DNA of 64,000 nucleotides from an uncultured Anaerolinea sp. Its GTDB lineage: Bacteria > Chloroflexota > Anaerolineae > JAAEKA01. This document shows positions 2,427 through 64,000 of the stretch, in pieces. The position numbers and the translations under genes are program-made. Below the pieces are notes generated by a model that had not been told where the DNA came from, searched no databases, and saw only the letters and a program-made list of their open reading frames with translations. The DNA is taken from positions 12,570 to 76,569 of the forward strand of contig CAZVGR010000014.1 of assembly GCA_964626845.1 (NCBI GenBank). The letters run 5' to 3'. Numbering within the stretch: the first letter of the stretch is position 1; every line of letters begins with the position of its first letter.

Positions 2427-3815
2427 ATGCACGTGCAACCTATCCACATTGACCCCGCCGTTCTCCAGGCCGACCCCGAACGACGCCAACGTATCCTGCC
2501 GGTGCTTGAGGCGGCGTTGCACGCCGTCGCGCCCGGGCCCGCCGTTCGCCGCGCGCTGCAGCGCACAGGCAGCCGGCTGGCCGTCGGCGCCGCTGTCCAT
2601 GACTTGAGCCAGTTCGAGCACATCTATCTGCTGGGCATCGGCAAAGCGGCTGTGGCTATGGGCCTGGCAGCGGCGGACACGCTGGGCGAATGGCTGACAG
2701 CCGGCGCGCTGCTGACCAAACACGGCCACGCGGCCGGCGCTGAGGCGCTGCCAGCCAGCGTCGCCGTCTTGGAGGCAGGCCATCCCGTGCCCGACGCGGC
2801 CGGCGTCCAGGCAGCCCAAGGCATCGCCATGTTAATGCAGCAGACCACAGCGCATGACCTGGTGCTGTGCCTGGTCTCTGGCGGCGGCTCGGCCCTGCTG
2901 ACCCTGCCGGCCCGCGGGCTGAATCTGAGCGACCTGCAAGCCACCACCGAGGCGCTGCTGCACTGCGGCGCTGCTATCGACGAGATCAACACGCTGCGCA
3001 AGCACCTGGAACAGCTCAAAGGGGGGCAACTGGCGCGGCTGGCCAGTCCCGCCGCGCTGGAGAGTCTGGTGCTTTCTGACGTGGTCGGCAGCCCGCTCGA
3101 CGTGATTGCCTCTGGCCCGACGATGCCCGACCACTCCACCTGGAACGAGGCGTGGCAGATCGTGCAGCGCTATGCTCTGGAGACAACACTGCCAGACGCT
3201 GTGGTGCAGCGCCTGCGCGCTGGGCTGAGCGGCGATCTGCCCGACACACCCAAGCCAGGCGATCCGGCCTTCGCTCGCAGCCAGACCATCGTCGTGGCCG
3301 ACAATGCCCTGGCTGTGCAGGCTGCTCAGGCCGCGGCCCGCCAGCAGGGCTTCAACCCGCTGACGCTGACAACTTTCATCGAGGGCGAGGCGCGCGAGGT
3401 GGCCAGGATGGCCGTGGCTTTGGGCCGCGAGGTGGTCGCGCATGGCCAGCCTGTTGCACCGCCGGCCTGTCTCCTGTTGGGCGGCGAAACCACTGTTACC
3501 GTGCGCGGCCCAGGCCGCGGTGGGCGCAATCAGGAGCTGGCGCTGGCGGCTGCGCTGGAGCTGGCGCGCGTGCCGGAAGGAGAACGCATGGTCCTCGCCG
3601 CTCTGGCTACTGACGGCGGCGATGGTCCAACCGATGCGGCCGGCGGGCTGGCAGACGCCAGCGCTGTCGCGCGCGGCCATGCCCTGGGCCTGGACGCAGC
3701 CGAGTTCCTGGCCCGCAACGACGCCTACCCTTTTCTGCAGAGCGTTGGCGACCTGCTGCATACCGGTCCCACTCAGACCAACGTTAACGACCTGATCGCC
3801 GTCTTTGTGTTTTGA
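2427..3815 (+). CDS. Glycerate kinase (MOFRL/DUF4147 family)
   Basis: 462 aa. LCLVSGGGSALL and GGETTVTVRG..GRGGRNQE motifs typical of the MOFRL glycerate 2-kinase family. Confidence 0.8.
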   Translation: MHVQPIHIDPAVLQADPERRQRILPVLEAALHAVAPGPAVRRALQRTGSRLAVGAAVHDLSQFEHIYLLGIGKAAVAMGLAAADTLGEWLTAGALLTKHGHAAGAEALPASVAVLEAGHPVPDAAGVQAAQGIAMLMQQTTAHDLVLCLVSGGGSALLTLPARGLNLSDLQATTEALLHCGAAIDEINTLRKHLEQLKGGQLARLASPAALESLVLSDVVGSPLDVIASGPTMPDHSTWNEAWQIVQRYALETTLPDAVVQRLRAGLSGDLPDTPKPGDPAFARSQTIVVADNALAVQAAQAAARQQGFNPLTLTTFIEGEAREVARMAVALGREVVAHGQPVAPPACLLLGGETTVTVRGPGRGGRNQELALAAALELARVPEGERMVLAALATDGGDGPTDAAGGLADASAVARGHALGLDAAEFLARNDAYPFLQSVGDLLHTGPTQTNVNDLIAVFVF

Positions 3816-3824
3816 GCCAGCCCT

Positions 3825-4763
3825 ATGTCCAGTGAAGCCGGATCACCTACTATTGCAGAGCGACTCGAAGCAAGGTTTGCGCAAGCTGACAGCGCCAGCC
3901 GCGGGTGGCTGGGCGTGCTGCGCCGCACAATTGATCGCTTCACCGCAACGCGCGGCCCGCAGGCGGCTGCGGCTCTGTCCTACTACAGCTTGTTCTCTTT
4001 GTTTCCCCTTGCCGTCTTACTGATCACTGCGCTGGGCTTTTTGATTGATCCAGAGGCTGCCCGGCAGTTGACCGGTGTCGTGATACAGCGCATTCTGCCC
4101 GATGCTGAGGGTATCGAGGAGTTTGTGTTCGACGTCCTGGACAGCATCTTCGCCTCTCGCGGCCAGGTGACGCTGATCAGCCTGGTAGCGTTGCTTTGGG
4201 CTGCATCTGGCGTTTTCACCAACCTGACCTTCAACATCGACCTGGCTTGGTCTGAGAATGGCCGGCCGAATCTGTTCACAGCGCGCTTGATAGGCCTGTT
4301 GATGGTGGTGGTGGTCTATGTGGGATTGATCGTTCTCCTGCTGTCGTCAGCCACGCTGGGTATGCTGTCCATGCTGCCAGTGGCTTTGATGCGCTGGTTG
4401 GGCTTCAGCGGCCAGATCGCGCAGGTGTGGAGCGTGCGCTCGATTCCTCTTATCATCTCGGTGATTGTTTTCTTTGGGCTGTATAAGTGGGTGCCCCGCG
4501 TGCAGGTGCCTTGGCGCATTGCCCTGGGCGGCGCGCTGTTTGCTGCCCTGGCGACTCAGGTGCTGAATCTGGGCTTCACCTGGTATCTGAGCAGCGGTCT
4601 GGCGCGTTATGAGCGTCTTTATGGCCCGCTTACCACCATCATCGTCTTGCTATTCTGGTTCTACCTGACGGTCCTGATTATCTTGATCGGCGCACATTTT
4701 TGTGCAGCGATGACGCATCGGCGCAAAATCCGAGCTGAGGCGCGCGTGCTGCCCACGACGTAA
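3825..4763 (+). CDS. YihY/BrkB family membrane protein
   Basis: 312 aa, multi-TM. N-terminal LSYYSLFSLFPL motif typical of YihY/virulence factor BrkB. Confidence 0.8.
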   Translation: MSSEAGSPTIAERLEARFAQADSASRGWLGVLRRTIDRFTATRGPQAAAALSYYSLFSLFPLAVLLITALGFLIDPEAARQLTGVVIQRILPDAEGIEEFVFDVLDSIFASRGQVTLISLVALLWAASGVFTNLTFNIDLAWSENGRPNLFTARLIGLLMVVVVYVGLIVLLLSSATLGMLSMLPVALMRWLGFSGQIAQVWSVRSIPLIISVIVFFGLYKWVPRVQVPWRIALGGALFAALATQVLNLGFTWYLSSGLARYERLYGPLTTIIVLLFWFYLTVLIILIGAHFCAAMTHRRKIRAEARVLPTT

Positions 4764-16551: not shown

Positions 16552-16593
16552 CGAGCGATCATCGAATGCGGAGCTTATCTTCCATGTGAGGTC

Positions 16594-16710
16594 GCCGGGG
16601 GATAAATCCCACCGGCTATAGAACTGCGCCGGATCAATCCGGCTACATCTGCGCACACCTTAGCCCCGTTGACGGGGCGCTGCTGGATAGCCGGTGGGAT
16701 TCATCCCCCG
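16594..16710. mobile_element. MITE-like element with 27-bp terminal inverted repeats (CGCCGGGGGATAAATCCCACCGGCTAT / ATAGCCGGTGGGATTCATCCCCCGGCG) and internal hairpins
   Basis: Arms match at 26 of 27 positions. Core contains hairpins gccgga-tcaa-tccggc and ccccg-ttga-cgggg. Confidence 0.5.
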
Positions 16711-16830
16711 GCGGCTGCCGCTCACGCACAAGGTGCATGTCAGCCGCGATCTACACCAGTATGTACGGATCGCCAATCCACCGGTCAAAGCTAATACCAA
16801 CCGCCCAGTAGCTAAACGTATCCGCGCACC

Positions 16831-17259
16831 ATGAACTACGTCTTTCCCACCACCAACCCACGCCGCTACCGCTTCCCCACCCACGCCAACGACCTGGTGA
16901 TGGACCGCGCCGAGGCGGCCACCAGCGAGGTCTTCATCGTCGAGATGGCGCCGGGCGAGGCGCCGCCGCGCCACCACCACGACGACATGGAGCAGATCTT
17001 CTACGTGCTGGCCGGCCAGGGCCGGCTGGAGATCGGCGACCCCACCGAGAGCGCGACGATCCATCCCGGCGACGTGGTGCGTATCCCCGTCTCCACCTGG
17101 CACACCGTCCACTGCCTGGGCGACGAGCCCTTACGCTACCTGGCCGTGGACTGCTTCATCGCTGGCCGTCCCGCCGCCGAGCCCACCTGGGACGACCACG
17201 TGCGCGTGGTGTGCCAGGAGCAAGGCTGGGACTACGATACCATCAGAAATGGTCAATGA
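16831..17259 (+). CDS. Cupin domain protein
   Basis: 142 aa. Cupin motifs (PPRHHHDDMEQIFYVLAG ... PVSTWHTV). Confidence 0.7.
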   Translation: MNYVFPTTNPRRYRFPTHANDLVMDRAEAATSEVFIVEMAPGEAPPRHHHDDMEQIFYVLAGQGRLEIGDPTESATIHPGDVVRIPVSTWHTVHCLGDEPLRYLAVDCFIAGRPAAEPTWDDHVRVVCQEQGWDYDTIRNGQ

Positions 17260-17345
17260 TCAATGGTCACTTGCCAATTGTCAATACTCAGAGCTTGCCA
17301 GCCATTGACAATTGACCATTGGACATTGAGATTTGGACATTAATC

Positions 17346-18530
17346 ATGCGCATCACCCCCCGCTTCCCCGACCTCCTCGCGATTTACCGCGCCGAGCTGC
17401 TGGAGCGCGTCGTGCCCTTCTGGCTGCGCCACGCCATCGACCGCCAGCACGGCGGCCTGTTGACCTGCATCGCCGACGACGGGGCCGTGCTGAGCACCGA
17501 CAAGTATCTCTGGTCGCAACTGCGCGCCGTCTGGACCTTCTCCGCGCTCTACAACCGCATCGAGCCGCGGCCGGAGTGGCTGGACGTCGCCCGCCACGTC
17601 TACGACTTTGCCAGCCGCTATGGCCGCGACGACGAGGGGCGCTGGGCCTTCGCCGTGGATCAGGACGGCCGCGTGCTGCAAGGCGCGGACAGCATTTTTG
17701 CCGACGGCTTTGCCATCTACGGCCTGACCGAGCTGGCCCGCGCCACCGGCGACCAGGCTGTCATCGACCTGGCGCTGGCGACCTACGCCAACGTGCAGCG
17801 GCGGCTGGCTGCGCCTGGATCCTACGGCATCGGCCCCTTCACCCTGCCTCCTGACGCCAAGGCCCACGCCGTCTCCATGATCTTTGCCCTGGTCTTCGAC
17901 GAGCTGGGCCAGTTGCTGGGCGACCAGGCCATCATCGCGGCCGGCCGCGCCCATGCCGATGAGGTGATGGACGCCTTCCTACGGCCCGACCGGCGCGTGC
18001 TCTACGAGTATGTCCACCTGGATAACACACTGATCGACACCCCGCAGGGCCGCGCAATCGTGCCCGGCCACGCCATCGAGTCCATGTGGTTCATGATTGA
18101 GATCTACCAGCGGGCCGGCCAGCCTGAGCGCGTCTGCCAGGCCGTGGAGGCGATCCGCTGGCACCTGGAGCTGGGCTGGGACGACGAGTACGGCGGCATC
18201 GTCCACGCCCGCGACGCGGCCGGCGGGCAGCCCTGGTGGCGCTTCGCCGACGCCAAGCTGTGGTGGCCGCAGACCGAGGCGCTGACCGCCCTGCTACTGG
18301 CCTGGGAGCACAGCCGCGAGCCGTGGTGCCTGGACTGGTTCGCCCGCGTCCACGACTATGCTTTCCACCACTACCCGGTGCCGCAGCATGGCGAATGGAC
18401 CCAGCGCCTGGACCGCCAGGGCCGCCCCTTCAACGCGACCGTGGCCCTGCCCGTCAAGGACCCGTTCCACCTGCCGCGCGCGCTGATCTACTGTGTTGGC
18501 GCGTTGCAGCGGCTGGCGGGGCAGGCGTAA
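17346..18530 (+). CDS. N-acylglucosamine 2-epimerase (AGE) family protein
   Basis: Start ATG 17346 (MRITPRF). (alpha/alpha)6-barrel AGE-family motifs. Confidence 0.8.
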   Translation: MRITPRFPDLLAIYRAELLERVVPFWLRHAIDRQHGGLLTCIADDGAVLSTDKYLWSQLRAVWTFSALYNRIEPRPEWLDVARHVYDFASRYGRDDEGRWAFAVDQDGRVLQGADSIFADGFAIYGLTELARATGDQAVIDLALATYANVQRRLAAPGSYGIGPFTLPPDAKAHAVSMIFALVFDELGQLLGDQAIIAAGRAHADEVMDAFLRPDRRVLYEYVHLDNTLIDTPQGRAIVPGHAIESMWFMIEIYQRAGQPERVCQAVEAIRWHLELGWDDEYGGIVHARDAAGGQPWWRFADAKLWWPQTEALTALLLAWEHSREPWCLDWFARVHDYAFHHYPVPQHGEWTQRLDRQGRPFNATVALPVKDPFHLPRALIYCVGALQRLAGQA

Positions 18531-18640
18531 TGCGTAATGCGTAACCCGTAACCCGGAAAGGCTCGCCGACGAGATCTCTGGTTACGGATTACGAGTTACG
18601 TGTTACGAGTTACGAGTTACGAGTTACGTGTTACAAGCAA
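18529..18640. repeat. Inverted heptamer arrays (TAATGCG/TAACCCG ... GTTACGA/GTTACGT) flanking hairpin core CGTAACCCGG...GGTTACG
   Basis: Direct inspection. Confidence 0.85.
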
Positions 18641-21310: not shown

Positions 21311-22087
21311 ATGTCATCCCCCATCCACCAAATCACCATCGACCAACTTCCCGTGCGCGTCTATGCCAGCAACGAGGCCATGGGCCAGGCTGCGGCAGTG
21401 GAGGCTGCGGCGGTAATCCAGCGGGCCATCGCCCAGCGCGGCGCAGCCAACGTCATCCTGGCCACGGGCAACTCGCAGCTCACCTTCTTGCGCAGCCTAC
21501 GCGAAAACCAGGATATCGAATGGCGGCATGTGCGCGTTTTCCACATGGACGAGTACGTGGGCCTCGACCCGCAGCACCCTGCCAGCTTTCCGCTCTTCCT
21601 GCGCCGCCATTTCCTGGACTACGTGGACGTGGGCGCGTTCTTCCCCGTGGCCGCGCCGGTCGAGGACACCGAGGCCGCCTGCCGGGCCTACGAGTCGTTG
21701 TTGCGCCATCACCCGGCCGACCTGTGCGCCTGCGGCATCGGCGAGAACGGCCACCTGGCCTTCAACGATCCGCCCTACGCCGACTTCGACGATCCCGTTT
21801 GGGTCAAGGTGGTGCAGTTGGACGAGCGATCGCGGCGCCAGCAGGTAGGCGAGGCCCATTTTACCACCCTGGACGAGGTACCCACCCACGCCGTCACCCT
21901 GACCATCCCCGCGCTGCTGGCCGCCGGGACCGTGCTGTGTATCGTCCCAGAAGCCCGCAAAGCCGAGGCCGTCCAGGCCAGCCTGCGCGGCCCGATTACC
22001 GAGGACTGCCCCGCGTCGATCCTGCGCACGCAGGCCCACGTCCGGCTGTATCTGGATCCGGAGTCGGGTAAATTGGTAAATTGGTAG
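21311..22087 (+). CDS. nagB: Glucosamine-6-phosphate deaminase (NagB/6-phosphogluconolactonase family)
   Basis: Start ATG 21311 (MSSPIHQ). Motifs ILATGNSQ and FHMDEYVGL. Confidence 0.8.
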   Translation: MSSPIHQITIDQLPVRVYASNEAMGQAAAVEAAAVIQRAIAQRGAANVILATGNSQLTFLRSLRENQDIEWRHVRVFHMDEYVGLDPQHPASFPLFLRRHFLDYVDVGAFFPVAAPVEDTEAACRAYESLLRHHPADLCACGIGENGHLAFNDPPYADFDDPVWVKVVQLDERSRRQQVGEAHFTTLDEVPTHAVTLTIPALLAAGTVLCIVPEARKAEAVQASLRGPITEDCPASILRTQAHVRLYLDPESGKLVNW

Positions 22088-22178
22088 ATTGGTAGATTGG
22101 TCATGACTCGCCGCGCGACAACATCACCAATCTACCAATCTACCAATCACCAATCTACCAATCTACCATTCACCAACC
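22075..22178. repeat. Inverted arrays of (TTGGTAAA / TTGGTAGA) and complementary (CAATCTAC / CAATCAC) hepta/octamer repeats
   Basis: Direct inspection. Forms a long imperfect palindrome between nagB and the downstream URO-D gene. Confidence 0.85.
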
Positions 22179-23327: not shown

Positions 23328-24325
23328 AAGTTCTCTTTATCGGCGGCACCGGCGTGATCAGCTCGGCCTGCACAGAGTTGGCCGTGCAGCAGCACATCGA
23401 CCTGTATCTGCTCAACCGCGGGCAGAGCACGGCGCGGCCGGCGCCCATCGGCGCAACGGTGCTGCACGGCGACATCCGCGACCCGGCCAGCGTCGAAGCC
23501 GCTCTGCGCGGCCACAGCTTCGACGTGGTGGTGGACTGGATCGCCTTCACGCCCCAGCATGTGCAGACTGACATCGACCTGTTCCGGGGCCGCGTGGGCC
23601 AGGTCATCTTCATCAGCTCGGCCTCGGCCTATCAGACCCCGCCGGCCAGCCTGCCCGTCACCGAGTCGACGCTGCTGGACAACCCTTTCTGGGAGTACTC
23701 GCGCCAGAAGATCGCCTGCGAGGAGCTGCTGGTGCGGGCTTACCGCGACGAAAAGTTTCCCATGACCATCGTGCGCCCCTCGCACACCTACGACGCCACC
23801 AAGATACCGCTGTTGGGCGGCTACACCAGCCTCAAGCGCATGAAAGAGGGCCGGCCGGTGCTGGTCTACGGCGACGGCACATCCTTGTGGACGCTGACCC
23901 ATACGCGCGACTTCGCCACCGGCTTCGTCCCGCTGCTGGGCAACGCCCGCGCCATCGGCGAGGCGGTGCATATCACCTCCGACGAATGGCTGACCTGGAA
24001 CCAGATCTACCAGACCATGGCCGCGGCGCTGGGCGTGGAGGCCAGGCTGGTCCACGTGCCCAGCGAGCTGATCAACGCTTACGACCCGCACCACGGCGAG
24101 GGCCTGCTGGGCGACAAAAGCCACAGCATGATTTTCGACAACAGCAAGATCAAGCGTCTGGCCCCCGGCTTTGCCTGCACCACCCCCTTCGCCTGGGGCG
24201 CCCGCGAGATCGTCGCCTGGCACGAGGCCGACCCGGCCCGGCAGGGGATCGACCCGTACGTGGAGACGTTGATCGAGCGGGTGCTGGCGGCGTATGAGAA
24301 GTGCTGGCCGGGCAGTAATGCGTAA
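23324..24325 (+). CDS. NAD-dependent epimerase/dehydratase (SDR family)
   Basis: ATGA overlap with the upstream stop. Rossmann motif LFIGGTGVISS. Confidence 0.8.
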   Translation: MKVLFIGGTGVISSACTELAVQQHIDLYLLNRGQSTARPAPIGATVLHGDIRDPASVEAALRGHSFDVVVDWIAFTPQHVQTDIDLFRGRVGQVIFISSASAYQTPPASLPVTESTLLDNPFWEYSRQKIACEELLVRAYRDEKFPMTIVRPSHTYDATKIPLLGGYTSLKRMKEGRPVLVYGDGTSLWTLTHTRDFATGFVPLLGNARAIGEAVHITSDEWLTWNQIYQTMAAALGVEARLVHVPSELINAYDPHHGEGLLGDKSHSMIFDNSKIKRLAPGFACTTPFAWGAREIVAWHEADPARQGIDPYVETLIERVLAAYEKCWPGSNA

Positions 24326-24412
24326 CTCGTAACTCGTAACCCGGAATTCGGAGACTCGTGCAGGCCGACTCCGGGTTACGCATTACGAGTTACGGGTTAC
24401 GGGCGCATCCAA
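24307..24412. repeat. Heptamer arrays (TAACTCG/TAACCCG ... TTACGAG/TTACGGG) around hairpin CGTAACCCGGAA...TCCGGGTTACG
   Basis: Same family as 18529-18640 and 63195-63268. Confidence 0.85.
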
Positions 24413-27022: not shown

Positions 27023-27039
27023 AGCTTTCCCTCACCCCA

Positions 27040-27125
27040 GCCCTCTCCCAGAGGGAGAGGGAGTCCGGAATCCGGAATCCGGAGTCCGGTCCCCTCTCCC
27101 TCTGGGAGAGGGTTAGGGTGAGGGC
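27040..27125. terminator. Long near-perfect palindrome (~33-bp arms) with a (TCCGGAA)n heptamer loop; candidate terminator after uxaC
   Basis: ccctcaccccagccctctcccagagggagaggg ... ccctctccctctgggagagggttagggtgaggg. Confidence 0.5.
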
Positions 27126-32868: not shown

Positions 32869-33363
32869 ATGACGAGAGAGCGCGTTGAGCCTGGACCGGG
32901 GCAAGAGTCGGTCTGGGATTATCCGCGGCCGCCGCGTGTGGAGCGGACTGAGAAACAGGTTCAGGTGGTGTTCAACGGCGTGATGATTGCCGACACGCGG
33001 CGCGCCTGGCGGGTGCTGGAGACCAGCCATCCGCCGGTGTACTATATCCCACCTGAGGATATTCGCGTGGACTGCCTTGTGCCCACCAGGGGCAGTTCGT
33101 TCTGCGAGTGGAAGGGCCAAGCGGGCTACTATGACGTTGCTGTAGGCGGCAAAACCGCAGCCAGCGCAGCCTGGTATTATGCCAAGCCAAGGCCAGCCTT
33201 TGCCGCCATCCAAGATCACGTAGCCTTTTATGCCGGCCTGATGGACGCCTGCACGGTGGATGGCGAGTTGGTGCAGCCTCAGCCAGGCGGATTCTACGGC
33301 GGCTGGATCACCAGCGACATCGTGGGTCCTTTCAAAGGCAAGCCAGGCACGTGGGGCTGGTAG
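32869..33363 (+). CDS. DUF427 domain protein
   Basis: Start ATG 32869 after AAGGAG. 'WDYPRPP...YYIPPED' motifs. Confidence 0.65.
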   Translation: MTRERVEPGPGQESVWDYPRPPRVERTEKQVQVVFNGVMIADTRRAWRVLETSHPPVYYIPPEDIRVDCLVPTRGSSFCEWKGQAGYYDVAVGGKTAASAAWYYAKPRPAFAAIQDHVAFYAGLMDACTVDGELVQPQPGGFYGGWITSDIVGPFKGKPGTWGW

Positions 33364-33480
33364 ACGAAAATTCCAGGTGCCGGGCACTAAGGCTCACGTT
33401 TGCCAAGTCGTCCCCAAGACAAAGCTGCTCCGCCAATCGGCGTCAAGTGCCCGGCACCGTGGCAATCGAAAGCAGAGACT

Positions 33481-37803: not shown

Positions 37804-38694
37804 TCAGGTGGCGGGCGGGCGAGAAGGCAGCGAATCCGCTTTGGGCAGAGCCTCAGGGGCATCTTGCTGCACCGTGATGCTTGCCAACTCCAGCCACTGC
37901 TCGTTGCGCTTTTCGATCAGACCATGCCACAGCCGGCCCTGCGGCGTGACGATCATCGCCTGGTTGTCCAGCCAGATGACCAGCCCCAGCGGCCCGCGCG
38001 GCGGGGTGGCGCAGTCCAGGACAAGCGCGCCGTCCACCCAAAAGCGCGCCCGGTGTCGTCCCCATTCGATCACATAGGTGTGCCAATCGACCAGCGGGAC
38101 ATCCACAGACGCCTCGCTGACGCCCACAGCCCGCTGAATGCCAGGCCACAGCCGGGAATAGACCGCGGGCAGGCGCAACAAGGGCACAGCCAGCGGCGCA
38201 GTGGGCGCCAGCAGCAGCGCTGGACCGCGACTGGCATCGATGGTGGCAGCCTTCCAGCCGCAGCCCGGTGTGCCCAGGTCCAGCTTCATATTGGAGGGCG
38301 GCGAGGCATAGAAGAACCAGAGCGCGCGCGGCAGGGCGGGCAGGCGGCGTCCCGGCGTCCACGGATCGTTCCAGAAGCCGAAGCCGGCCGTGCCGCTGAT
38401 GATCGGCCCACTATCGGCGGGATAGACCAAGCCGCAGGGATGCTGCGGACGCGCGCCAGGGTGCGAGAAGCGCGCTCGCACCGTCAAGGTCAACGGCGGC
38501 GACCAGAGCAGGCGCCGTCGCGACAGCCCCTGATAGTCGTCGATCTGGGCGTTGCTGTAGCGCTGCGCCGATGTGGGGCCGTTGACCAGCCGCAGCGCGC
38601 CGTTGTTCAGCGCCAATCGGCCGCTGCCGCATTCGATGCGCTGCCAGCGGCTGGGCAGGCCGGCAGCAAAACCTTCGCTGCTATGCTGTACCAT
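37804..38694 (-). CDS. Hypothetical secreted protein, possibly concanavalin-like / GH16-like fold
   Basis: Start ATG 38694 (MVQHSS). 'WHTYVIEW' resembles a GH16 beta-sandwich motif, but the catalytic ExDxxE motif is absent. Confidence 0.4.
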   Translation of the reverse strand: MVQHSSEGFAAGLPSRWQRIECGSGRLALNNGALRLVNGPTSAQRYSNAQIDDYQGLSRRRLLWSPPLTLTVRARFSHPGARPQHPCGLVYPADSGPIISGTAGFGFWNDPWTPGRRLPALPRALWFFYASPPSNMKLDLGTPGCGWKAATIDASRGPALLLAPTAPLAVPLLRLPAVYSRLWPGIQRAVGVSEASVDVPLVDWHTYVIEWGRHRARFWVDGALVLDCATPPRGPLGLVIWLDNQAMIVTPQGRLWHGLIEKRNEQWLELASITVQQDAPEALPKADSLPSRPPAT

Positions 38695-38852
38695 GAGTGA
38701 GTACGTCGTAAACAAAGTTGTTGAGGTGCCCGGCACTTGACACGAGTTTCTGATCATGTATGAATCGTCGCCAAAGTGCCGGGCGCCGATACGCAGTTAA
38801 TTTGTTTACGGTGTAGTGAGTGGCAGGAATAACCAACAAACAACAGGGGCAC

Positions 38853-38897
38853 AGCCAGCGAGCTTGCCAGCTATGCCCCTGTTTGATCATGCATCCA
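38853..38897 (-). terminator. Rho-independent-like terminator (stem ACAGGGGCA/TGCCCCTGT followed by a T-rich run on the minus strand)
   Basis: Hairpin plus 'tgtttgttggtt' downstream of the 38942 stop. Confidence 0.5.
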
Positions 38898-39358: not shown

Positions 39359-39658
39359 AGAAATTTCCTCCGTAAGATCAAGAACAAGGGTGGCGCCGTG
39401 CCGCTTTTGGGATGACAGCGGCATCAACGCGCCGATACAACGAAAAAAACTGGATGCAAGACAGCTACAAGTATACTGCAATTCGATTACAATACAACTC
39501 TGGCAAGCCAGCGCACTGCGCCTCGCTGCTCCACAGTTTTCTTGCCCAGGTTACTCGTCAGGCGCCGGGCACTTGCAACCCATGCACCGCTTAAAGAGGA
39601 TCGGCGGACATCCTTGCAGGCGCAGATTCAAGCGCCCGGCGCCTATCGGCGCCTGGGG

Positions 39659-40354
39659 TTACTCGCTCAGGATGATCGGCACACGCCAAGGCGGATCATC
39701 GCGCCACACCACCCGCAGCATCAGTCCGGCTTCGGCTGCGCGCTGCTCCATGCGCGCCAACAGGCTGGCCGACTCAGCGCCAGAAATCTGCTGACTCAGC
39801 CTGCCCAAGGCGGGCCAGTCCACGTTGCAGGTCACGAACAAGCCGGCAATAATCAACCGGCCGCCCGGCCGCAGCACGCGACGAAACTCAGCCAGGCTGG
39901 CAGGGTCGACGATGTACTCGGCCGGGAAGGTGGCGACAACGCTGCCAAAGCTGGCTTGGGCCAGAGGCAACTGCTGGGCGCGGCCTCGCAGACGGGGGGT
40001 ATGAAGGCCGCGGCGGCGCAGCGTGGCGGCGGCCTGGCGCTGCATAGCCGGCGACAGGTCGATGCCCACGGCCGGCCAGCCGCGCTCGGCCATGGCCGCC
40101 AGCAGGTGGCCGGTGCCGAAGCCCACTTCCAGCACTGGCCAGCTTTCGACGTAATCCAGCGCCATGCGCCGCCAGCGGTCCCATCGGCCTGCGCTGACGA
40201 TCCACGCGGCCAGGTCATAGCTCCAGGCGAACTCGTTGTACAGCCGGCGCGTCGCCCAGAGGTAGAGCCGGGCTGGCAGCGGCAAGGGGTGGGCAGCTTG
40301 ATCCATGCGCTCAGTGTATCCCAGCCCATACCGATTGTCCAAAAGCGCCAGCAC
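39659..40354 (-). CDS. Class I SAM-dependent methyltransferase
   Basis: Motif I 'VLEVGFGTG'. GTG start 40354 after an AAAGGG SD. Confidence 0.7.
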   Translation of the reverse strand: MLALLDNRYGLGYTERMDQAAHPLPLPARLYLWATRRLYNEFAWSYDLAAWIVSAGRWDRWRRMALDYVESWPVLEVGFGTGHLLAAMAERGWPAVGIDLSPAMQRQAAATLRRRGLHTPRLRGRAQQLPLAQASFGSVVATFPAEYIVDPASLAEFRRVLRPGGRLIIAGLFVTCNVDWPALGRLSQQISGAESASLLARMEQRAAEAGLMLRVVWRDDPPWRVPIILSE

Positions 40355-41997: not shown

Positions 41998-42023
41998 ACG
42001 GTCTGGCAGCGCCCGAAACCAGC

Positions 42024-42071
42024 GGCGGCCAGGATGCTTGGAGATGAGAATCCAAGCATCCTGGCCGCCGC
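42024..42071. terminator. Perfect 20-bp-stem palindrome (cggcggccaggatgcttgga-gatgagaa-tccaagcatcctggccgccg) between convergent genes
   Basis: Direct inspection. Likely bidirectional terminator. Confidence 0.55.
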
Positions 42072-42086
42072 TCCCTTTGCACAGTT

Positions 42087-53902: not shown

Positions 53903-54207
53903 GTAACTGCTCAGCCGGCCGGTCAGAAACCGGGTTTTTCTCGTTGGGCAATGATTTCTGAGTTTGCAAACGCATTGCTCGGGGCTATGATAGCCGCTTC
54001 CGCAGCAAAAACCCGGTTTCTCTAAGGAGCTGTTTAAAAAGCCCGGCAGCGTCGGAATCAGAGGTTGAAACCATCTGGCTGAAAGTACGAAGCGGCCTCA
54101 GCCGCTGGATTCCAGGCCCTGAGGGGCCTTCGTGCTGTCAGCCGGTGGGTTTCCAACCACCGATCCGGGGCTTTTCAAACAGCCTCTAAGCCCAGCCTGA
54201 GCAGTAA
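53903..54207. mobile_element. Left copy of a ~140-bp MITE (TIR TAACTGCTCAG.../...CTGAGCAGTAA), interrupted by a nested MITE
   Basis: Reverse-complement match (1 mismatch) to 60237-60376, split by the 54026-54183 insertion. Confidence 0.7.
54026..54183. mobile_element. Nested 158-bp MITE with ~16-bp TIRs (GCTGTTTAAAAAGCCC / GGGGCTTTTCAAACAGC) and 7-bp target-site duplication CTCTAAG
   Basis: CTCTAAG at 54019-54025 and 54184-54190. The right MITE copy at 60237-60376 has a single uninterrupted CTCTAAG. Confidence 0.7.
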
Positions 54208-54354
54208 CCAGCTACCTAATAATTCGCGGGAATGCCGGCCGTCATATCCCGCTATTGCTCCATCGCCTACCGCTGACGGCCAGTCCATAGTGGCCGCCAT
54301 TGTACCATTTCACCCGTGGGAGGGCAAAAGGGCGCGTTCCGGGCTGCCCAGGGC

Positions 54355-60173: not shown

Positions 60174-60236
60174 CGCTTCGCATCGGCTGGCCAGCTCGGT
60201 TGTTACGGAACCCCGCCGAGAAACATTCGGCGTTTG

Positions 60237-60376
60237 TTACTGCTCAGGCTGGGCTTAGAGAAACCGGGTTTTTGCTGCGGAAGCGGCTATCATAGCCCCG
60301 AGCAATGCGTTTGCAAGCTCAGAAATCATTGCCCAACGAGAAAAACCCGGTTTCTGACCGGCCGGCTGAGCAGTTA
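60237..60376. mobile_element. Right copy of the ~140-bp MITE in inverted orientation, with 9-bp target-site duplication CGGCGTTTG
   Basis: CGGCGTTTG directly flanks both ends (60228-60236 and 60378-60386). Internal hairpins (gcaatg...cattgc; gctatgatagc). Confidence 0.7.
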
Positions 60377-60439
60377 CCGGCGTTTGTTGTAATGGGGCTG
60401 ACGCCGGCGCTGCTATGGGGCGCCGATTCCAGCCTGAGC

Positions 60440-63194: not shown

Positions 63195-63268
63195 AAGTGA
63201 TGCGTAACGAGTACTGCGTAACCCGGAATCGCGCATGGCGTCTCCGATTACGTGTCACTCGTTACGTA
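63195..63268. repeat. GCGTAAC(C/G)... heptamer/hairpin element (GCGTAACCCGGAATCG ... CGATTACG ... CGTTACG)
   Basis: Same family as 18529-18640 and 24307-24412. Confidence 0.75.
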
Positions 63269-64000
63269 TTACACGTCACCTGCCATTCCATGCGGAGCCG
63301 CAACGATAGGTTCACCGGCCGCCACGCCCAGCCGCGCAGCGGCGCTGCCATCGCGCACGGCCACCTCCAGCGTGCCATCGCTGCTGACCAGCGACAGAAG
63401 CTGGCCCGGCGCGGCCTCGGCGTAGGTCAGGCTGGGGCCGACGACTTGCTGGCCGGCGATGCGCACGGTCCAGAACCGGCCGGCCAGCCAATCGCCAGGG
63501 ATGTTGCTGACCAGGTTGCCGAAGCGGTCGACGTGGACGATCTGGCCGCGCAGGCTGCCGCCCAGCTCGCGCTGCGGGGGCTGCACGGTGAAGCGAACAG
63601 GGTCGTCGATGGGCGCGCCCAGGGCCTGGAGCGGGGTTCCCAGCGCCAGATGGGCCGCCACCGGCGCGAAGATGTCGCGGCCGTGGAAGGTGCGGCTGAC
63701 GTGGGGCAGCCAGTAGGCCGGGTTGTCCAGATGGACGCAGGCCGCCGGCTGGCCGGCCGGCAGGGCATAGGTGAACACGCCGTTGTCGGGGCCGACCAGG
63801 GTATAGTTGCTTACCTGCGCCGCCATCGGCCGGCGCGCGCTGCCCACCCCAGGATCGACAATGGCGACGTGAACCGTGCCCGGCGGAAAGTAGGGCAGGG
63901 CTGTGGCCAGCACGTAGGCCGCCTCGCGCACGTTCTGCGGGGCAATCTGGTGGGTGATGTCGACCACCGTGGCCTGCGGCGCGATGCTCAGGAGCACGCC
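63269..64000 (-). CDS. SAM hydroxide adenosyltransferase / SAM-dependent halogenase family (DUF62) protein, 5' end beyond window
   Basis: C-terminal 242 aa with 'VDRFGNLVSNI' motif. ORF open to the window edge. Confidence 0.7.
   Translation of the reverse strand, partial: GVLLSIAPQATVVDITHQIAPQNVREAAYVLATALPYFPPGTVHVAIVDPGVGSARRPMAAQVSNYTLVGPDNGVFTYALPAGQPAACVHLDNPAYWLPHVSRTFHGRDIFAPVAAHLALGTPLQALGAPIDDPVRFTVQPPQRELGGSLRGQIVHVDRFGNLVSNIPGDWLAGRFWTVRIAGQQVVGPSLTYAEAAPGQLLSLVSSDGTLEVAVRDGSAAARLGVAAGEPIVAAPHGMAGDV

Follow-up and report, generated by a model that had tools for sequence, protein, structure and literature searches.

Inverted motif pairs at three intergenic sites

The DNA analysed here, a 64-kb stretch referred to throughout as the window, contains a DUF427 gene followed by a HAD gene and, further along, a class I methyltransferase gene (minus strand), a DUF5684 gene and a gene labelled ConA-like in the preliminary description, for which no Pfam match and no exact protein match on record were obtained. 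Three exact inverted pairs of GGYGCCSGGCRCT were identified at 33376-33458, 38725-38787 and 39561-39643, and the elements that contain them are termed E1, E2 and E3 (Table 1). All three pairs are intergenic, and the genes on either side of each point the same way. The E1 pair begins 12 nt past the DUF427 stop codon (33361-33363) and ends 22 nt before the start codon of the HAD gene (33481). E2 is flanked on one side by the DUF5684 terminator hairpin (38842-38883) and on the other by the ConA-like gene, which starts at 38694 on the minus strand. E3 is found some 195 nt ahead of where the DUF5684 gene starts (39367). Neighbouring open reading frames run into the elements because these are GC-rich and free of stop codons. 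A spanning-open-frame test of coding versus intergenic placement (median of 465 nt versus 1179 nt at random positions) was weak and was not used as evidence.

Table 1. Coordinates and sequences of the elements, their repeats and related loci. Positions are those of the window unless a locus (L) is named.
Feature	Position	Strand	Sequence	Description
E1	33370..33466	-		Degenerate copy, 83-bp-core subfamily; family orientation on minus strand
E1 inner arms	33376-33390 / 33444-33458		GGTGCCGGGCACTAA / CAAGTGCCCGGCACC	Inner unit 83 bp
E1 outer repeat remnants			ATTCCA / TGGCAAT	
E1 flanking direct repeat	33365-33369 and 33467-33471		CGAAA	5 bp
E2	38704..38814	+		Complete 111-bp copy, 63-bp-core subfamily
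E2 inner arms	38725-38739 / 38773-38787		GGTGCCCGGCACTTG / AAAGTGCCGGGCGCC	Inner unit 63 bp
E2 terminal inverted repeats			CGTCGTAAACAAA / TTTGTTTACGGTG	11/13 matching
E2 left target-site duplication	38696..38703		AGTGAGTA	Direct sequence reading
E2 right target-site duplication	38815..38822		AGTGAGTG	Direct sequence reading
E3	39550..39662	+		113-bp copy, 83-bp-core subfamily
E3 left terminal repeat	39550-39560		GTTACTCGTCA	
E3 inner arms	39561-39575 / 39629-39643		GGCGCCGGGCACTTG / CAAGCGCCCGGCGCC	Inner unit 83 bp
E3 right end	39644-39662		TATCGGCGCCTGGGGTTAC	Diverged, finishing GTTAC
E3 candidate duplication	39542-39549 / 39663-39670		TTGCCCAG / TCGCTCAG	6/8 matching
Second-family MITE, 142 bp	60236..60377	+	GTTACTGCTCAGG / GCTGAGCAGTTAC (outer repeats); CGGCGTTT (duplication)	Perfect 8-bp duplication
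Second-family copy, 306 bp	53903..54208	-	CGGCTACC / CAGCTACC (duplication)	Duplication 7/8 matching
Bare-hairpin loci	L011 220-330; L030 2640-2750; L035 6355-6440; L037 7775-7860			
Bare-hairpin loci, further	L025 5985-6195; L016 2870-2945 and 3840-3875; L093 11990-12030			

The arms are 13-15 nt long with the consensus GGYGCCSGGCRCTTG, and their 11-nt core, GYGCCSGGCRC, is a palindrome about a single central base, in keeping with the preliminary description, which had called the core GTGCC(C/G)GGCAC palindromic. The inverted pairs that it had reported at three loci are likewise real, with small offsets in their coordinates, since the window has three exact pairs, whereas 300 first-order Markov simulations, with one mismatch tolerated per arm, gave 0.01 on average. 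Single sites were not significantly enriched alone (9 matches with up to two mismatches versus 5.5 expected in the window), and the significance therefore rests on the paired arrangement. When the 15-mer was searched across the 64 kb, no match with up to one mismatch was found beyond the six arm sites, and up to two mismatches added one site, at 4056 (2 mismatches). The 15-mers are separated by 53 bp in E1, 33 bp in E2 and 53 bp in E3, and not by the 40-56 bp given previously.

The preliminary description had interpreted these sites as paired operators of a dimeric regulator, with looping. On that reading a transcription factor would bind GTGCCSGGCAC at two sites 50-70 bp apart and would control the HAD, ConA-like and DUF5684 genes. 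The palindromic 11-bp core, its paired occurrence in non-coding DNA ahead of three genes and the centre-to-centre arm distances (70, 50 and 70 bp in E1, E2 and E3, a difference of about two helical turns) all fit such an arrangement. Set against it is the central base of the arms, which is always complementary within a pair (G...C or C...G). As one arm has G at this position and the other has C, the arms are true reverse complements, which marks a single inverted-repeat unit and not two independent copies of an operator. The neighbouring 670-aa 7TM protein has only HisKA_7TM as a Pfam match, and nothing ties the pairs to it.

Element anatomy and target-site duplications

The pairs proved to be the inner part of larger units. 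A canonical element of about 111 bp consists of an 8-bp target-site duplication, an outer repeat that starts from GTAAC (GTAACTATTCA ... CTGAATAGTTRC), inner arms (GGTGCCSGGCACTTG / CAAGTGCCSGGCACC) and a non-coding core, which sets the inner unit at 83 or 63-64 bp. From alignments of the flanks, the 83-bp unit reads as the 8-bp duplication, GTAACTATTCA, GGTGCCGGGCACTTG ... CAAGTGCCCGGCACC, TAGGGCTGAATAGTTRC and the same 8 bp again, and the 63/64-bp class follows the same plan with GTAACGACTCA / TGAGTCGTTAC. The terminal repeat consensus of the family is GTAACTATTCAGGTGCCGGGCACTTG and its inverse. In the window the elements measure 97-113 bp, and in relatives about 111 bp; they have no coding capacity and at this length could not accommodate a transposase gene.

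These boundaries were further supported by a blind search of all fetched loci for repeat ends accompanied by a perfect 8-bp direct repeat, which returned 16 cases, with CACAGCAT, CCATTTTC and GTCAAGAC as examples of perfect duplications, and which included one nested insertion and the 142-bp second-family element of the window. At L026 6181-6548, a 249-bp element with GTAACTGCTCAG ends is nested in a GGTGCC arm of a 111-bp copy and has a motif-derived duplication, GCCCGGCA.

The three window copies differ in how well these features are preserved. In E2 the two duplications agree at 7 of 8 positions, AGTGAGT(A/G), in E3 the candidate duplication agrees at 6 of 8, and E1, which is without canonical GTAAC termini, has only the 5-bp direct repeat. 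E3 is an older copy. A check for target-site duplications had been proposed in the preliminary description and turned out positive, with the duplications about 11-27 bp outside the pairs, as the elements are longer than had been recognised there.

A family HMM was derived from 18 full-length copies of about 111 bp, none from the window, and it matches E3 at 39551-39646 on the plus strand (E 4e-16), where the core aligns to the family over its full length, and E1 at 33375-33458 on the minus strand (E 1.8e-8). E3 also aligns with copies in the MAGs MFD10570 bin10 and H71_756, and E1 is the same core reversed. E2 has its homologue at L044 1321-1383, with the left outer segment GTAAACRAAGT common to both. 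The sequence between the arms, previously considered unrelated from one locus to the next, thus goes back in E1 and E3 to one 83-bp core, diverged and oppositely oriented in the two copies, and in E2 matches the 63-bp core of L044.

Presence and absence at orthologous sites

A search with the HAD protein led to close relatives (Anaerolineae bacterium) with 92-96% identity in this protein, and two of their loci, L131 and L133 (HAD identity 94%), provide an empty site for E1. The distance from the DUF427 stop to the HAD start is 16 nt in both, versus 117 nt in the window, and E1 appears in the alignment as a single clean 101-bp gap with flanks that are more than 90% identical. E1 is the only element with a base-exact empty site. 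By its insertion it separates a tight DUF427-HAD gene pair and brings a hairpin of about -46 kcal/mol into the transcript. The insertion relative to L131 is clean despite the missing GTAAC termini, and both truncated ends at transposition and later decay are conceivable.

The same gap holds a different insertion of about 279 bp in another close relative, one with an identical HAD protein (L132 9706-10000). This insert contains a long foldback, GGGTGTGTTCAAAATGGGTTGA...TCAACCCATTTTGAACGCACCC, and partly resembles a segment downstream of the methyltransferase gene in L131 and L050. The DUF427-HAD gap looks like a hot spot for small repeats.

For E2 and E3, the loci L049, L050 and L131 keep the order of methyltransferase gene, DUF5684 gene, terminator hairpin and ConA-like gene, and neither element is present there. 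MAFFT alignments of these regions with relatives at 80% protein identity were too unclean for exact empty sites, and the claim is accordingly one of absence from the syntenic interval. Since L131 is a contig of MFD10570 bin10, which has the family at no fewer than 10 other places, the element exists in that lineage and is absent at these particular sites.

Effects on the adjacent genes can be read at both elements. A single base (38695) separates the left duplication of E2 from the ConA-like start codon (CAT, 38692-38694), and the element itself stands a few bases in front of that codon. The stop codon of the methyltransferase gene (39659-39661) falls within the GTTAC that ends E3, so that the stop TAA is supplied by the GTAAC terminus of the element. 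The protein ends in ...SE* in the window, versus a longer and different ...AERSP* in relatives without E3 (L050 3255-3270, L131 ~18573-18590), which indicates that the insertion rewrote the gene end; the last methyltransferase codons were replaced together with the stop codon.

Two observations concern the DUF5684 gene itself. A region of about 140 nt upstream of it (window ~39368-39510, minus strand; L049 1-148; L050 ~3380-3532) is conserved with relatives whose ConA-like protein is 80% identical, holds TTGTAATCGAATTGCAGTATACT and an internal hairpin, and could be a promoter and 5' UTR element; E3 lies upstream of this leader. In L050 (~3530-3735) and L131 (~18100-18310) the gene is interrupted by an in-frame TAG and an internal deletion relative to the window and L049, and in that relative it is probably a pseudogene.

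Against the operator interpretation, close relatives lack the motif sites in all three orthologous intergenic regions, E1 and E3 sit directly after stop codons, and the place of E1 is a 16-nt operon junction in relatives. The sites also lie within units bounded by inverted repeats and duplications.

Distribution of the family across genomes

The paired pattern was scanned for in species-representative genomes, and at least 47 loci were recovered. Among the matches listed, all are Anaerolineae/Chloroflexota MAGs save two in Streptomyces, which are apparently chance matches in coding sequence. Within single MAGs the pairs are spread over many contigs, with no fewer than 20 contigs of H71_756 (DAOUBX01), 10 of MFD10570 bin10 (JBAQCH01) and 7 of NAM bin18, while the source genome has 3 copies in the 64 kb covered. 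The inner lengths among the matches listed cluster at 83 bp (at least 22 copies) and at 63-64 bp, which are the sizes seen in the window. In H71_756 the 83-bp core is near-identical between copies, and both orientations are present. Many decayed copies without exact arms were also picked up by the family HMM, and even in these no part of the element is better conserved than the inner near-palindrome.

This conservation is compatible with protein binding and in that respect suits an operator, but the occurrence of the pairs at many unrelated loci in both orientations does not. Together with the absence of the sites from the same intergenic regions of relatives and their position inside elements with terminal inverted repeats and target-site duplications, it largely refutes looping operators as the origin of the sites, and we consider that a dimeric regulator can hardly account for them.

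Other Chloroflexota MAGs carry the motif in a different form, namely as bare 31-46-nt hairpins such as GGTGCCGGGCACTTCGGAAGTGCCCGGCACC, which often follow a stop codon directly. In some cases two or three direct half-site copies with a period of 24-34 bp stand ahead of the hairpin and form a tandem array. No outer repeats or duplications are visible at the bare hairpins or half-site arrays of these MAGs. Their behaviour is REP/BIME-like, and a simple MITE model fails to account for them. Integron attC sites (no R/L core motif and no cassette arrays) and CRISPR arrays (the "spacers" of the tandem arrays are identical to each other) were also ruled out.

The question that follows is whether the window copies are themselves REP sequences or REPINs, that is, two inverted REP units that form a single-stranded hairpin and are moved by a RAYT, an IS200/IS605-like HUH tyrosine transposase. 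Their architecture would fit, with two inverted palindromic units forming a hairpin around a spacer, extragenic placement and high copy number, and so would the short hairpins after stops and the BIME-like arrays of the other MAGs. Furthermore, both arms change together in some subfamilies, from CAC/GTG to CAT/ATG and with the central pair from G-C to C-G. Elements of the window type nevertheless possess 8-bp duplications and outer terminal repeats, and to our knowledge, single-strand HUH transposition of the IS200/IS605 type yields neither. No RAYT gene was seen in an unsystematic look. The arm ends also lack the GTAG or CGTC tags that have been described for large REP super-families (PMC3733652). 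A RAYT-driven origin of the window copies is consequently regarded as very improbable.

RNA folding of the elements

All three elements form long hairpins, whichever strand is folded (-33 to -55 kcal/mol; z from -3.5 to -5.9, the latter for E1), and E1 and E3 are situated just after stop codons on the same strand as the downstream gene and are thus probably co-transcribed. This raises the idea of a structured non-coding RNA under selection, be it a small RNA, a terminator or attenuator, or a hairpin that stabilises mRNA. However, both strands fold equally well, as for any DNA inverted repeat, and the hairpins are not followed by a T run. Rfam gave no match over the whole window at gathering scores and, in the 6.7-kb region at an E-value threshold, only a chance match to a miRNA precursor (E 0.19). 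In RNAalifold with 20 diverse copies, essentially the arms alone pair and the covariation term is -0.14 kcal/mol, and in view of this lack of covariation the idea was dropped. The pattern of presence and absence and the duplications show in addition that the elements arrived by insertion, and selection for an RNA structure is judged extremely unlikely to explain them.

A second family and other repeats of the window

The window contains a second family of MITEs with outer repeats of the same type (GTWACTGCTCAG) as those of the GGTGCC-motif family, represented by a 142-bp element and by a 306-bp copy that is enlarged by about 165 bp of additional internal sequence. This family has an inner inverted pair, AAACCGGGTTTTT / AAAAACCCGGTTT, and no GGTGCC motif; a different CCSGG-centred palindrome (AAACCGGGTTT) occupies the equivalent place. 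A similar 142-bp element is found at L124 6768-6909.

The intergenic DNA of the window also has several other kinds of short repeat, inverted or tandem, at 16593-16713, 17241-17348, 22072-22168, 24315-24401, 27029-27124 and 63197-63272. Among them are heptamer/octamer arrays of ATTGGTAG and CGTAACT, arranged as inverted blocks, and CCCTCTCCC / GGGAGAGGG palindromes. The source genome is rich in small repeats. Between the convergent ChlI-like gene (stop 41997) and a 1430-aa ORF (stop 42087), a perfect 22-bp inverted repeat with an 8-nt loop (42021-42072) is probably a bidirectional terminator.

Origin of the elements and the transposase question

Taken together, the elements exist in many copies, have inverted repeats and duplications at their boundaries, and are found at a given orthologous site in some genomes and not in others. 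The three paired palindromes of the window are therefore, with high probability, the conserved sub-terminal arms of three copies of a MITE family found in Anaerolineae. A family of short MITEs had been named as an alternative in the preliminary description, and it is this alternative that gains support from the multi-copy spread, the terminal repeats, the duplications and the empty sites. Mechanistically, a DDE-type transposase encoded elsewhere would bind both ends, cut out or copy the element and insert it with an 8-bp staggered cut, and the local effects on genes are side effects of insertion.

A parent element was sought in several ways. The outer-repeat pattern gave none in the window, the fetched loci, about 0.9 Mb in all, yielded neither an autonomous element nor a transposase when searched for repeat ends up to 6 kb apart with a duplication, and the terminal repeat searched in viral contigs disclosed no parent element there. 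A tblastn search of the same small sample (~0.9 Mb of fetched DNA) with an IS66 TnpB-like peptide, which is a weak query, gave no significant match and thus no IS66-like ORF. The inverted repeats of the IS66 family are 20-30 bp long and start with GTAAGCG or GTAACCG, and its direct repeats are 8 bp (PMC11946415, PMC12888890). By analogy with these features, namely GTAA termini and an 8-bp duplication, the IS66 family is put forward tentatively as a possible source of the transposase, a suggestion that we hold to be somewhat more doubtful than probable.

The inner near-palindrome is probably a protein-binding or hairpin-forming module of the element ends and not a host operator. Its status as the best conserved part, together with the CCSGG palindrome at the equivalent place in the second family, leads us to infer a functional sub-terminal module, and the like layout of the second family hints that inner palindromes are a functional part of this transposon group. 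On the other hand, the second family shares the outer repeats without the motif, and the motif may thus be dispensable for transposition despite its strong conservation.

A broader proposal is that AGGTGCCSGGCACYT is a stand-alone REP-like module across Chloroflexota, occurring as bare hairpins, in half-site arrays and as sub-terminal arms of MITEs. We regard this as unlikely. If true, it would imply a conserved sequence-specific factor, whether a transposase domain, a RAYT-like enzyme or a host protein, as well as elements of a hybrid class, with a REP-type palindrome being spread by a DDE-type MITE.

Implications and comparison with known systems

These results have direct consequences for annotation. 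A false regulatory lead is removed, the motif pairs should be masked as repeats, and they offer no basis for inferring a regulon or the function of the 7TM protein. The family is abundant in uncultured Anaerolineae, and breaks in short-read assemblies are to be expected from its elements. Insertions reshape gene ends, with a new stop codon through E3 and a split operon junction through E1, and the presence or absence of an element at a site is usable as a strain marker. The two-tier ends and the independent inner palindrome could provide a route to the transposase or binding factor.

The elements are ordinary selfish repeats, a MITE family and thus a known kind of element, and no description of the GGTGCC-motif family was found in literature searches on the motif, on REP in Anaerolineae and on MITEs in Anaerolineae. 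Comparison with looping operators of the lac, gal, ara and deo type shows a likeness in the two palindromic sites a few helical turns apart upstream of genes; the difference is that the sites described here are not conserved at orthologous promoters, are dispersed in many copies and are delivered by insertion. The REP/BIME/REPIN-RAYT systems resemble the family in their extragenic inverted palindromic pairs with a spacer and their hairpins, and REP-like hairpins and arrays do exist in other Chloroflexota MAGs, but window-type copies differ in having outer repeats with 8-bp duplications and no GTAG or CGTC tag.

IS66 elements share termini from GTAA and an 8-bp duplication with the family, whose combined outer and inner repeat is about 26 bp. 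In contrast to IS66, the elements here are without tnpA, tnpB and tnpC and their repeat differs beyond GTAA(C), the link consisting of two short features only. There is also a close likeness to bacterial MITEs such as Correia of Neisseria, MITEAba12, ERIC/IRU and RUP, which are also non-coding elements of about 100-150 bp with terminal inverted repeats and duplications, many mostly intergenic copies, long hairpins and insertion polymorphism between relatives, and whose insertions can alter gene ends, as E3 does here by providing a stop codon. What sets the window family apart from these MITEs is its two-tiered ends, in which a variable outer GTAAC... repeat is combined with a much better conserved inner near-palindrome, and the fact that this near-palindrome is common to subfamilies with different cores and lengths and also occurs alone in other genomes.
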